Positions 5,429 to 39,041 of a DNA stretch of 64,000 nucleotides are shown piece by piece; position 1 is the stretch's first letter; each line of letters begins with the position of its first letter. The notes under the pieces were generated by a model. That model was not told the DNA's origin. It ran no database searches and was given only the letters and a program-made list of their open reading frames with translations. The stretch covers positions 1 to 64,000 of the IMG/VR virus record IMGVR_UViG_3300009499_000008; one strand, given 5' to 3'. The position numbers and the translations under genes were made by a program. This DNA comes from a virus.

Positions 5429-5889
5429 TAAGTTGTTACGATTACCAAATCGTCCTCTTTTTCGATCTCTTTAGATGCCAACACTTTTCCCTCAATAGCG
5501 GGGGCTTCTTGCATCTTTGGAAGAGGCCCCTTTTCAGCGGGCAAAAATACTACTAAACGATCATCGTCGTAGTGGCGAACGCTGATAGCCAGTTCCCTAT
5601 TTTCAAGTCCTAGAACGCTAAGGCAGAATTTTGCGGCTTGCACAGAGCCGTTTTCCGCCTGCTTGACCATCGATTCATATATGGCATGGAGATGTTTTCC
5701 GATGTAAACGCTGGCAATATCAGATACGGCTTCCCAAAATCCCGGCGTCAACGTCCAGCCCTTAAGTGTCATAATGTTGATGCCAAGTGTCTCCGCAATC
5801 TCTGCATCAGTCTGACAACCTTCTGGTCGTGTCGCTTCTGGAACTGTAAGTAACTCTTGAAATCGGCGCTGTCTGTGCGTCCATCGCAT
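5428..5889 (-). CDS. terS: Terminase small subunit (N-terminal HTH)
   Basis: HTH TDAEIAETLGINIMTLKGW, AENGSVQAAKF motif, immediately upstream of TerL. Confidence 0.75.
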   Translation of the reverse strand: MRWTHRQRRFQELLTVPEATRPEGCQTDAEIAETLGINIMTLKGWTLTPGFWEAVSDIASVYIGKHLHAIYESMVKQAENGSVQAAKFCLSVLGLENRELAISVRHYDDDRLVVFLPAEKGPLPKMQEAPAIEGKVLASKEIEKEDDLVIVTT

Positions 5890-6680
5890 CAGATTTCTTG
5901 CTCCTCTGCCCGCTTTCTGCGCCAGTATGCGATTTTAGCGATGCTCATTTTTCGTTTACTTTCCTCACTGTGACGCTTACCCATCTGTGTGGCACTTATT
6001 TTCCTACGAGTCCTTTCACTGACTTGATGCCCAATTTTTGCCTCACTCATCTTCCTACGTGTCTCCACGCTGGGGTGCTTGCCTCTCAACGCATTACTAA
6101 TTTTCTGTTTGGTTTCCTCACTGAGGCGTTTTCCATAATTAGGATGTCGTTTGCCAGACTTTGCCGCACGCAATTTAGCACGTGTCTCTACACTGAGATG
6201 CTCACGCTTATGTGCATTACTCATCTTCCTACGTGTCTCTGTGTTAGGATGCTTACCATAGTTGGGATGACGCTTGCCAGTTAGCGCGGTACTCATTTTA
6301 GCACGTGTCTCCGCACTATGGTGTTTACCATAAAAATGATTCCGCTCACCAATTTGCTTTCTACGAGTCTCTTCAGTATGTTGAACTCCAAGTGAACTTC
6401 CCGCCATTGGCGCGATATTATATTCAGGATTCAACGTATCGAGATAATATTGTTCATGCGGAATAAGTTGTTTGCTATCTTTAATCTGTTCCAAGATACT
6501 AAACGTAAACACCAATTCGCCGTACTTGTTGAAAGCTCTCTGAAGATGCTTATTGCGATGTTGCTCGCAGCGCAACGTACTTAGATGCACTGCCCATCTT
6601 TGTCGAAGGTTCACAGCGCTGCCAATATATCGCTTGCCGTTTATTTGATTTTCGATCTGGTAGATGCCACTAACCATCAC
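5889..6680 (-). CDS. Free-standing GIY-YIG homing endonuclease with about 8 NUMOD3-type repeats
   Basis: GIYQIEN...YIGSA...R, EQYYLD...YN; repeated H-S-x-E-T-R-x-K-M-S units. Confidence 0.95.
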   Translation of the reverse strand: MMVSGIYQIENQINGKRYIGSAVNLRQRWAVHLSTLRCEQHRNKHLQRAFNKYGELVFTFSILEQIKDSKQLIPHEQYYLDTLNPEYNIAPMAGSSLGVQHTEETRRKQIGERNHFYGKHHSAETRAKMSTALTGKRHPNYGKHPNTETRRKMSNAHKREHLSVETRAKLRAAKSGKRHPNYGKRLSEETKQKISNALRGKHPSVETRRKMSEAKIGHQVSERTRRKISATQMGKRHSEESKRKMSIAKIAYWRRKRAEEQEI

Positions 6681-36393: not shown

Positions 36394-36454
36394 GTGCGGG
36401 CTTGTCCGACGGGGCAAGCGGATAGGCGGGGCTTGACAGCGAGAAGGAGGACAC

Positions 36455-36730
36455 ATGCTGAAGGTAGGTGATCGAGTGAGAATCTGTCTAGGCAGTCATT
36501 TCTCTAGGCTACCATCGCGTCTCATTGGGCAGGGGGGAATAATCATATATCTCGAACCGCAGGAATGTGAGTTCCCAATGCAGATAGTGCATATTGATGG
36601 CGAAGGCGAGATTGACTGCTATAAGGATGAACTGGAGCTCGTGCTGGCAGGCGAGGAACAAGAGGAAGCTGCTGAACGAGCCCAGGCCAAGACTCTGCTG
36701 AACGCGCTAGATGAAATCTGGGGCATATGA
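36455..36730 (+). CDS. Small SH3/KOW-like beta-barrel protein
   Basis: LKVGDRVRI...G.GGII...ELELV. Confidence 0.55.
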   Translation: MLKVGDRVRICLGSHFSRLPSRLIGQGGIIIYLEPQECEFPMQIVHIDGEGEIDCYKDELELVLAGEEQEEAAERAQAKTLLNALDEIWGI

Positions 36731-36744
36731 GGCCCCGCGCTAAC

Positions 36745-36784
36745 CGTACCCAAATCGGATACGATTGCACCCAAAATGGGTACA
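36745..36784. repeat. Tandem pair of 19-bp imperfect palindromes (right copy)
   Basis: CGTACCC-AAATC-GGATACG, AT, TGCACCC-AAAAT-GGGTACA. Confidence 0.75.
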
Positions 36785-36797
36785 GAAAGGGAAGATT

Positions 36798-38432
36798 ATG
36801 ACAGGAATTTCAATAATTCAAGGTGATGTTATTGAGGTTCTCAAGGATTATCCAGATGAGTCTTTCACCGCTTGTTTCTGTGATCCGCCATATGGCCTCA
36901 AATTTATGGGTAAAGAATGGGATCACGGTGTTCCAGCAATTCCTTATTGGGCAGAGGTACTACGTGTGCTCAAGCCTGGCGCAGTGCTCATGGCATTTGG
37001 AGGCACGAGAACTTGGCATCGGTTGGGAGTGGCCATTGAGGACGCGGGATTCGAGTTGTTCGATACTATGATGTGGCTTCATGGACAGGGATTTCCGAAA
37101 TCTCATAGTATTGGGAAAGCGCTGGACAAGGCGGCTGGCGCGGAACGAGAGGTGATAGGGCAAGCAGATCGCAGAAGTGGCCCTGGTCGTCATATGGCTG
37201 CCTTGGCTGGACATCGTGGCGAGAGTGTCATCCCAAACATCACTGCACCCGCCACCGACGCCGCCAAGATCTGGGAAGGTTATGGGACTTCCCTTAAGCC
37301 CGCCTGGGAGCCAATCCTCCTAGTTCGCAAACCCCGCACCGCGACGTATGCGCAGACTGCGATGGAGCACGGTTCTTCTGCTCTCAACATCGACGGTTGT
37401 AGAATTGCCAGTGCCAAACCCCATGTCATCAATACATGGGATGATGGCGCTAAACCTTTTGGTGATGGTGCAGGGCATCCCTTTACAGGTCGTCAACAAA
37501 GTGGAAGATGGCCAGCGAATTTGATACTTGACGAAGTAGTGGCGGAGATGCTGGATGCACAACAGAAAGGAACCTCACGGTTTTTCTACTGTGCAAAAAG
37601 TTCACGACGAGAAAGAGATGCAGGATTAGAAGAGTTTGACAGTACGGAACAAGTATGCTATGATGAAACTCTACCACTAACCGAACAGGAGAGTTTATCA
37701 TGGGAAAGCACGGGCCTCATTCAAGCCATCCAAGTGGCTACGGATGGACTACAAAGAAGGGCTATCATCGTTTCTGCCTTTGGAATCCTGCCACCAAAAG
37801 TAGTAGACTTGTGCTTGCTCATGTGTATGTTTGGGAGAAAGCCAATGGGTCGATTCCTACAGGCTCTACTTTGCATCATATCAACGGCGACAGGCAAGAC
37901 AATCGCATTGAAAATCTACAACTTGTTACATTCTTGGAGCATAAGCGAATCCACAGCGGATGTGAACTCCGAAATGGTGTATGGTGGAAACCATGTAGCA
38001 TCTGTGGAGAATTCAAACCAATTATCAAAGAACATTGGTACTTCTCCAAAGAAGGTTGGCCTCTCTATGGAAGATGTAAACCGTGCCACATCAAAATTGT
38101 CGTCATCAAAAAGCGTGCTCGAAAAGCTAGACAAAAGATGCAGACGTAAACCAGCGCACCCAACCATAAAGCCGCTTGCTCTTTGTAAATATCTAGCCAC
38201 TCTCATCATCCCACCAGAAGAGTATCGAGACGATGCTAACCTCCTGATCCCCTTCGCTGGTGTAATGAGTGAAGCAATCGGAGCACTCTTAGCAGGGTGG
38301 AGAAATATCACCGCGATTGAACTTGAGAAGGAATATTGTGAGATTGGTCAAAAGCGTATTGATTGGTGGGTTGTCAAAATAAAAGAAACTGGACTAACCG
38401 ATCCTAAAGCTATTCTAAAGAGAGGAAGCTGA
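36798..38432 (+). CDS. DNA methyltransferase carrying a large in-frame insertion
   Basis: CDPPY, LKPAWEPI, GRWPAN, SRFFYCAK, HPTIKP, IPFAG; about 170 non-MTase residues between ERDAGL and HPTIKP. Confidence 0.88.
   Translation: MTGISIIQGDVIEVLKDYPDESFTACFCDPPYGLKFMGKEWDHGVPAIPYWAEVLRVLKPGAVLMAFGGTRTWHRLGVAIEDAGFELFDTMMWLHGQGFPKSHSIGKALDKAAGAEREVIGQADRRSGPGRHMAALAGHRGESVIPNITAPATDAAKIWEGYGTSLKPAWEPILLVRKPRTATYAQTAMEHGSSALNIDGCRIASAKPHVINTWDDGAKPFGDGAGHPFTGRQQSGRWPANLILDEVVAEMLDAQQKGTSRFFYCAKSSRRERDAGLEEFDSTEQVCYDETLPLTEQESLSWESTGLIQAIQVATDGLQRRAIIVSAFGILPPKVVDLCLLMCMFGRKPMGRFLQALLCIISTATGKTIALKIYNLLHSWSISESTADVNSEMVYGGNHVASVENSNQLSKNIGTSPKKVGLSMEDVNRATSKLSSSKSVLEKLDKRCRRKPAHPTIKPLALCKYLATLIIPPEEYRDDANLLIPFAGVMSEAIGALLAGWRNITAIELEKEYCEIGQKRIDWWVVKIKETGLTDPKAILKRGS
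37636..37664 (+). promoter_or_regulatory. Promoter inside the MTase gene, upstream of the HNH gene
   Basis: TTGACA-17 nt-TATGAT with TG extension, followed by an AGGAG RBS and ATG 37700. Confidence 0.75.
37700..38149 (+). CDS. HNH homing endonuclease overprinted in another frame inside the MTase
   Basis: LAHVYVWEKANG.IP....HHINGDRQDNRIENL......H..IH, plus C-terminal CSIC/CKPC zinc finger. Confidence 0.9.
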   Translation: MGKHGPHSSHPSGYGWTTKKGYHRFCLWNPATKSSRLVLAHVYVWEKANGSIPTGSTLHHINGDRQDNRIENLQLVTFLEHKRIHSGCELRNGVWWKPCSICGEFKPIIKEHWYFSKEGWPLYGRCKPCHIKIVVIKKRARKARQKMQT

Positions 38433-38836
38433 TGTTAATCCTAGCACTTGACCCAGGAGAAACCACGGGCTATGTCGTCGCCGAGATCGATGGACTCGAT
38501 TACGACATAAAAATCAGTGGGCAATTTCCTAATTGGCAAATGCTTGAGGCGTTGATAACTTACTGGTTGCCAGATAGAATCATCTATGAAGCATTTTATC
38601 TCTCACCACAGATAGCCAAGTACAAGACTCGAAGCACTCTACCAACTGTGGAAGTCATCGGAGTACTCAAATTTCTTGCTTGGCAATACTCAACTCCATT
38701 AGTAGCCCAGCCGCCATCAGCTAAGGAGCTTGTGTCATTGCCACGTTACATCGCTGGCGTTTCTGGCCCACACGCTAGAGACGCTCTAAGACATTTGATT
38801 GCTTATTTAAGATTAAGAGGAGGAAATCAAACGTGA
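38432..38836 (+). CDS. RuvC-like Holliday junction resolvase
   Basis: ILALDPGETTG, IIYE, HARDALRH. Confidence 0.8.
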   Translation: MLILALDPGETTGYVVAEIDGLDYDIKISGQFPNWQMLEALITYWLPDRIIYEAFYLSPQIAKYKTRSTLPTVEVIGVLKFLAWQYSTPLVAQPPSAKELVSLPRYIAGVSGPHARDALRHLIAYLRLRGGNQT

Positions 38837-39041
38837 AATGCCAAAATTTTAGCCGTTATAAACGTAGATTCTTTTCTCAGCGTTGCAAAGGATCGGCGAG
38901 GGTGACACTCACTTTAGAATGTCGTGAGGAAGAGAAAATAGTTTTGGAGCTTTGCAACGCCTGCGCATATGCAATTGCTAAAGATGCTCTAGGACTTGGA
39001 TGGAGTGCGAATTTGAAAAGGGTGCATAGAGAGGAGGCCAA

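Follow-up and report, generated by a model that had tools for sequence, protein, structure and literature searches.

A putative homing HNH cassette with its own expression signals, nested in a stop-free DNA methylase frame of an uncultured phage

Homing endonuclease genes are thought to persist in essential or conserved genes only inside self-splicing introns or inteins. Phage group I introns often carry HNH genes, and free-standing homing endonucleases are known from "genes in pieces", such as mobE in nrdA of phage Aeh1. A third way, in which the host frame stays open and the filler is left in the protein, is suggested by hidden HNH insertions. The ShiLan domain was described in 2023 in DNA methylases of mycobacteriophages (Gosselin et al. 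2023, PMC9957025), and was recognised in 2025 as an out-of-frame HNH devoid of a splicing signature (Arsenault, Gosselin & Gogarten 2025, PMC11855218); the latter authors, who also discuss the HNH genes of phage group I introns, found no RBS, proposed leaderless initiation, and described a methylase which is not essential. Related cases (Pacc40 insertion, phage Applejack) have been reported (PMC12613952). Out-of-frame endonucleases have been found inside inteins as well, both in actinophage (bioRxiv 10.1101/2025.01.02.630785) and in cyanobacterial dnaX (bioRxiv 10.64898/2026.09.14.751524). Two questions were left by the 2025 ShiLan description, namely how the nuclease is expressed and whether selection maintains the open frame. 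The lineage reported here addresses both computationally: a conserved promoter and RBS, predicted from the sequence, appear to travel with the cassette, and free-standing relatives provide a natural control, showing that host-frame stops are purged in nested copies.

The window, that is the whole stretch of 64,000 nucleotides that was analysed, corresponds to the first 64 kb of IMGVR_UViG_3300009499_000008, a complete 79.7-kb record of an uncultured virus, with terminal repeats. Differently from ShiLan, the phage is non-actinobacterial; it is uncultured and derives from a metagenome of the subsurface. No close cultured relative of it was found, the best match of its SNF2 helicase being at most 30% identical.

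An uninterrupted ORF of 555 aa, located on the plus strand at 36765-38432, belongs by motifs and fold to the beta-class N6/N4 DNA methyltransferases, and its activity is predicted. The Pfam match to PF01555 (N6_N4_Mtase) spans residues 36-529: both methylase halves are therefore part of one domain, separated by an insert. Since methylase homologs begin with MTGISII, the true start is likely to be the ATG at 36798 (MTGISII...). The C-terminal part (38157-38432, plus strand) contains HPTIKP, in the motif X region, and the AdoMet-binding motif. In the alignment with homologs, DPPY and HPTIKP are present and all catalytic motifs are intact; FAGVMSE is found in place of FxGSGS, as it is in insert-free members of the subfamily. 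The methylase core is confidently modelled by AF2 (pLDDT >90) and closes around the insert. Its best fold matches, when analyzed by Foldseek, are CcrM, M.BceJIV and M.RsrI, and also M.PvuII; the alignments to CcrM, M.BceJIV and M.RsrI cover both methylase halves. The TGA stop of the methylase overlaps the ATG of the next ORF (38432-38836), forming TGATG at 38430-38434, and the downstream genes are therefore expected to be translationally coupled to it.

The insert interrupts a variable linker between RERDAGLEE and HPTIKP. As pointed out in a first-pass annotation, made from the letters alone, the methylase frame crosses about 0.5 kb of inserted DNA with no stop codon, while a second frame (offset 2) encodes a complete 149-aa protein, composed of an HNH core and a Cys-rich zinc finger (37700-38149, plus strand). 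Over 37620-38160, 0 stops are found in the methylase frame and 10 in the third one; the HNH frame, whose start is at offset +2 (equal to -1) from the ORF start at 36765, is open only from 37667. As this is 11 codons before the ATG, and a slippery site is absent, a methylase-HNH frameshift fusion was ruled out. The HNH protein matches Pfam PF13392 (HNH_3) with E=7e-17, and residues H59, H60, D64, N68, N72, H81 and H85, along with five Cys, are invariant in 21 HNH relatives. A sequence search of the protein against solved structures gave no match; its AF2 model (pLDDT 89.7) was compared with the PDB by Foldseek, where the top match is the homing endonuclease I-HmuI (1u3e, E=1.8e-3, probability 1.00). 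These features point to an HNH homing endonuclease type (I-HmuI-like, HNH_3) with a beta-beta-alpha-metal catalytic core and conserved His/Asn/His, predicted to cleave DNA. The ORF, together with the signals preceding it, forms a candidate mobile cassette of about 515 bp, placed at 37632-38147 on the plus strand, with approximate boundaries taken from the identity step against the related locus L074; the HNH ORF is flanked by 68 nt on its 5' side and 7 nt on its 3' side.

The first-pass annotation had also reported TTGACA-17-TATGAT at 37636-37664 and an AGGAG RBS: both are borne out at the sequence level and are conserved in relatives. The predicted sigma-70-type promoter (plus strand; -35 at 37636-37641, -10 at 37659-37664, with an upstream TG) scores 11/12, is the best promoter-like site within 36400-38900 and sets the predicted transcription start near 37671, while the Shine-Dalgarno AGGAG (37687-37691, plus strand) is found 8 nt before the HNH ATG. 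Among nested relatives, promoter matches reach 12/12 in L074 (TTGACA/TATAAT) and 11/12 in both L076 (TTGACA/TACAAT) and L160 (TTGACG/TATAAT); in the relatives from run X2 the -10 is TATAAT (37662 G>A). GGGAGG or GGAGG is found at the same place as AGGAG in L074 and L160. In the window, L074, L076 and L160 the -35 and -10 are kept at the nucleotide level: the overlying host-frame residues change (D to N), with preservation of the hexamer. The window, L074 and L160 feature a leader of 29-35 nt with a Shine-Dalgarno. The distance from the end of the -10 to the ATG is 5-6 nt in L076 and, less strongly supported, in L021, L023 and the free-standing L001, a position which suggests leaderless mRNAs. 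Promoter and RBS, kept in relatives, seem to move with the element, and their function is predicted.

The element resembles the ShiLan domain (PMC11855218), and the concept had rightly been flagged at first pass as perhaps not new. Both hosts belong to the PF01555 family, the window methylase being 46% identical to gp65 of phage ShiLan (NC_041988.1); in both, an HNH with a zinc finger is nested in a host frame which is stop-free and lies at +1 to that of the HNH, signatures of introns or inteins are not found, the distribution is sporadic and I-HmuI is the top structural match. Site, nuclease and expression differ, however. The ShiLan insert follows GTALKP (window residue ~179), about 290 residues upstream of the site occupied in the window, which is just before HPTxKP (residue 465). 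The ShiLan HNH is 195 aa long, the window one 149 aa, and they have in common the catalytic core only (34% over 53 aa). The window element features a conserved, predicted sigma-70 promoter and Shine-Dalgarno, whereas no RBS was found for ShiLan. With a different site and likeness limited to the HNH core, homology between the two elements was ruled out. Judged from these comparisons, the element is a separate lineage of an already published kind; what is new is the site, next to the cofactor-binding motif, the HNH subfamily, the presence of an expression cassette of its own and the non-actinobacterial phage.

In phage ShiLan (L018:6786-10059), the annotated gp65 stops resembling its homologs beyond ...AERPSVV and has neither HxTVKP nor the AdoMet motif, and a small 'methyltransferase', gp67, is annotated downstream; the ShiLan methylase may itself be split at its 3' end. 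Lilac gp101, tried as a ShiLan-type case, was rejected, containing an ordinary intein at WLYG/C (here and below, a slash marks the junction). At L234:254-2809 a methylase contains an intein at WLYG/C whose middle looks like unconserved filler, and which may hold another out-of-frame or antisense endonuclease.

With the separate-frame endonucleases of inteins, the window element shares a nuclease gene overprinted on host-frame sequence that must stay open. This type is found within its own HNH clade, in L081, L155 and L023, at HP/T of the same methylase motif: these three loci, which are ParB-methylases, and L032 contain true inteins at HP/T, in which an out-of-frame HNH belonging to this clade is nested; the HNH gene overlaps intein block F at its 3' end. 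The window insert, in contrast, includes no Hint or splicing domain, so the filler could not be removed by protein splicing. Likeness to "genes in pieces" is seen in that a conserved host gene harbours, with no intron or intein, a gene of the HNH family equipped with expression signals, and in two relatives, L076 and L079, having a methylase interrupted at HPT/VKP; the window host gene differs in being unsplit, a single continuous frame. In L076:3470-3500 the methylase is broken right after the HPT codons (HPT-TGA-GCA-GTG-AAG); in L079:3520-3560, 5 extra nt (TTGAC) right after the HPT codons produce a frameshift, with a TTGA stop/start overlap. Each has a possible restart codon after the break. 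The two methylases seem split or dead, from their sequence, and the breaks may reflect division of the methylase into two pieces, or else a footprint left where cleavage is presumed to occur.

Alignment with insert-free homologs, proposed at first pass as a check, shows the insertion: in the nearest methylases (P0001-P0010 and L233, 73-80% identical) the insert is absent, and a short variable linker is found at the site. A linker of over 160 aa, in which a shadow of the HHxNGD motif is visible, is present in only 6 of the 95 close homologs with both flanking motifs. The nearest HNH is that of L074 (78% identical; it matches protein P0011), whose host methylase is no more than about 50% identical. 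Between the window and L074, nucleotide identity is 0.75-0.88 within ~37630-38140 and 0.35-0.65 in the methylase flanks, with a sharp step at both edges: the host genes have diverged between genomes far more than the cassette has, and the extent of the block indicates that the mobile unit includes the promoter. In relatives L019 and L077, the cassette and about 50-60 nt of flank are 97-100% identical, against 33-93% for the remaining gene, the pattern that would be expected of recent gene conversion. In contigs from two other studies, the insert and its junctions have relatives of about 90% identity. One contig joins 37562 to 38163; the joint may be a replacement, rather than a clean empty site, and contig depth is not readable as allele frequency.

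Whether the open host frame reflects chance or selection was evaluated on relatives retrieved through the similarity of their HNH from collections of viruses, metagenomes and genomes, blind to the state of the methylase frame; this search was chosen because a methylase-based one would favour methylases joined by gene callers. Every full-length HNH relative was sorted by genomic context. Intein-free nested copies, with methylase halves on both sides, are those of the window, L073-75, L076, L077/78/19/20, L079, L021, L080, L156, L160, L091 and L092, while L081-83/154, L155, L023 and L032 are nested within inteins. The intein-free copies represent at least 11 diverged lineages, with HNH identities of 56-79% and lower, and host-frame stops are 0 in all of them, a result that recent insertion cannot explain. 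The host frame across the HNH is likewise stop-free in the intein-borne copies, and in every nested copy, ShiLan included, it is +1 relative to the HNH. In the free-standing relatives, in contrast, the host-equivalent frame has stops in 27 of the 28 (112 per 4116 codons, or ~4 per 150 codons). None of the relatives sorted by context combines flanking methylase halves with a stop within its HNH part. When the same HNH protein was recoded with the codon usage of 33 long ORFs of the window phage, a mean of 4.6 stops appeared in the methylase frame, with P(0 stops)=0.004. Within-gene synonymous shuffling gave only P=0.11 for the window; this procedure is conservative, because the codon set of the gene is already purged of NTA and NTG codons. 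Overall, these comparisons support the view that the methylase frame across the cassette is kept stop-free by selection.

Selection on amino acids follows the other frame. In seven nested copies, substitutions at HNH codon positions 1/2/3 are 971/850/1638, while the amino-acid identity of the host-frame read-through, in diverged pairs of nested relatives, is 0.28-0.37, the level seen in the third, non-coding frame. This places the HNH under purifying selection and leaves the peptide of the methylase frame as filler. At the level of these substitution patterns, the analysis shows the HNH to be the sole frame of the cassette under amino-acid selection, the filler being constrained merely to be stop-free. 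The filler consists of ~176 unconserved aa (residues 289-464; 37629-38156, plus strand). AF2 assigns a pLDDT of 33-69 to methylase residues 290-465, with some weak helices; the hydrophobic fraction of the filler is 0.40, equal to that of the core, and it is not especially hydrophilic. A protein-database search with this peptide matched P0011 alone, its divergence being too rapid for tracing. Judged from the conserved C-terminus and the low-confidence AF2 region, the filler may form a tolerated loop in a methylase that would still work, while its weak helices and its hydrophobicity speak against a plainly harmless one.

These observations fit a mobile HNH cassette, with its own promoter, RBS and ORF, hosted in a methylase linker whose frame is stop-free, a reading to which a probability of about 0.75 is assigned. 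The methylase would be translated straight through as one protein, the ~176-aa filler not destroying its fold, and the HNH would be produced separately, from the internal promoter. The HNH would cut insert-free methylase alleles near the HPTxKP-coding DNA, and repair of the cut allele would copy the cassette in, resulting in homing without splicing. The first-pass proposal, a homing element relying on dual coding and not on splicing, agrees with this: the comparative evidence supports a mobile HNH cassette and a host frame kept open by selection.

The methylase might, however, be dead or dispensable, with its frame open only to avoid polarity on the coupled downstream genes, or because the insertion is recent. 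The overlap of its TGA with the ATG of the ORF at 38432 is in favor of this, since translational coupling is another possible reason for an open frame, and so is the non-essential methylase of the ShiLan case (PMC11855218). Stops in the methylase frame of homologs had been named at first pass as the sign of a dead or split methylase: none is found across the nested HNHs, but directly behind HPT the frame ends with a stop in L076 and is shifted in L079, and an intact methylase is thus not always kept. In the window, yet, the catalytic motifs are all intact, and identity to eight insert-free homologs is 80-86% over residues 465-555, after the insert, and 75-81% before it. A C-terminus as conserved as the N-terminus supports a functional methylase, with predicted activity. 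An internal start for the C-terminal methylase piece before VMSE is absent, so that this piece can be made only by read-through of the insert or after splicing. Recency is no explanation for 0 stops in at least 11 diverged lineages. Altogether, an inert methylase is considered unlikely. Alternatively, the HNH might not be a homing enzyme but a nuclease that acts together with the methylase, in a module of restriction-modification-like or anti-competitor type, where nesting would just secure co-inheritance. The fixed pairing seen in free-standing relatives, all found immediately 3' of a complete methylase gene, would fit such a role; an insertion placed right at a catalytic motif which is conserved, the presence of sister copies in inteins of that motif, sporadic distribution and near-identical cassettes with co-converted flanks in diverged alleles are instead hallmarks of homing, and make the partner role, taken as a substitute for homing, rather improbable. 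The two roles do not exclude each other.

Removal of the insert, from RNA or from protein, is a further alternative. The absence of intein ends and of an obvious intron core had been stated at first pass; Pfam and Rfam scans agree, returning no intein or intron matches. An unrecognised self-splicing intron carrying the HNH ORF may be imagined, as HNH genes are frequent in phage group I introns and divergent cores, split by an ORF, can escape Rfam models. Rfam gave no intron family at E<=10 in the window region and none at E<=0.1 in the window region and 14 related loci, where the catalytic RNA core of a group I or group II intron was not detected; the 68 nt before and 7 nt after the HNH ORF are too little for an intron core, and an open host frame, not needed by an intron, is found in every lineage. 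Such an intron is accordingly judged very improbable. A cryptic intein-like or protease-dependent step, removing the filler from the protein, has a precedent in L081, L155, L023 and L032, whose HNHs are out of frame in true inteins at HP/T: protein splicing is the solution adopted by these sister elements. They served as positive control, reading HP/C...SHN/T and giving Intein_splicing or Hint_2 matches. The window ORFs have no Pfam match to the Hint or Intein_splicing families, the methylase domain being the only one reported for the methylase frame, and no intron or intein signature is found in the 14 related loci. The insert junctions read ...GLEE/FDST and ...RKPA/HPT, with no Hint blocks between them, no Cys or Ser at the N-junction and no HN before C/S/T, and the 68 and 7 nt outside the HNH ORF leave no room for a Hint domain; removal at the protein level is thus hardly to be expected. 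The absence of known signatures argues for an insert which is not spliced, as assumed in the homing cassette reading.

Further relatives show how the same HNH may be carried. All free-standing relatives directly follow, on the 3' side, a complete gene for a methylase or ParB-methylase, and often overlap the stop of that gene. In intein-free nested copies the HNH terminates 0-8 codons short of HPTxKP, and in L156, L091 and L092 the HNH stop TAA falls within host V-K codons (GT TAA A). A quick HNH tree with a midpoint root, from which the order of events is not deduced, groups nested and intein-borne copies with some of the free-standing ones in one supported clade. A broader proposal, which could equally hold or fail, is that one HNH clade came to occupy the HPTxKP region of PF01555 methylases in three forms that can replace one another (free-standing at the 3' side, as a naked stop-free cassette, or out of frame in an HP/T intein), the host being always +1 and the naked form having its own conserved promoter, in some copies placed for a leaderless mRNA; frame-open nesting would be a general, evolvable third route, beside introns and inteins. 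If this is true, transitions between vehicles of homing elements are visible within one HNH clade. The E. coli-like signals and the small size make the element suited to tests of splicing-free homing, and also to gauging how far a methylase tolerates insertions next to its cofactor-binding motif.

Other arrangements were seen along the way. The 692-aa methylase ORF of L077 (L077:1250-3328) contains two different HNH genes in tandem (L077:2155-2574 and L077:2656-3084), both out of frame, with the host at +1 and its frame open through both. At L095:2382-3050 the same methylase family hosts a distant HNH (32% identity), nested with an open host frame at a third site, which follows GRWPANL. An in-frame HNH-like domain (AHHI...NGITLCENCH) precedes the ...EEKNAGL motif in another methylase of the subfamily, at L238:323-2755. 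The window itself includes, at 5889-6680 on the minus strand, a GIY-YIG-type endonuclease gene (GIYQIEN...YIG) which is free-standing and rich in repeated basic motifs.
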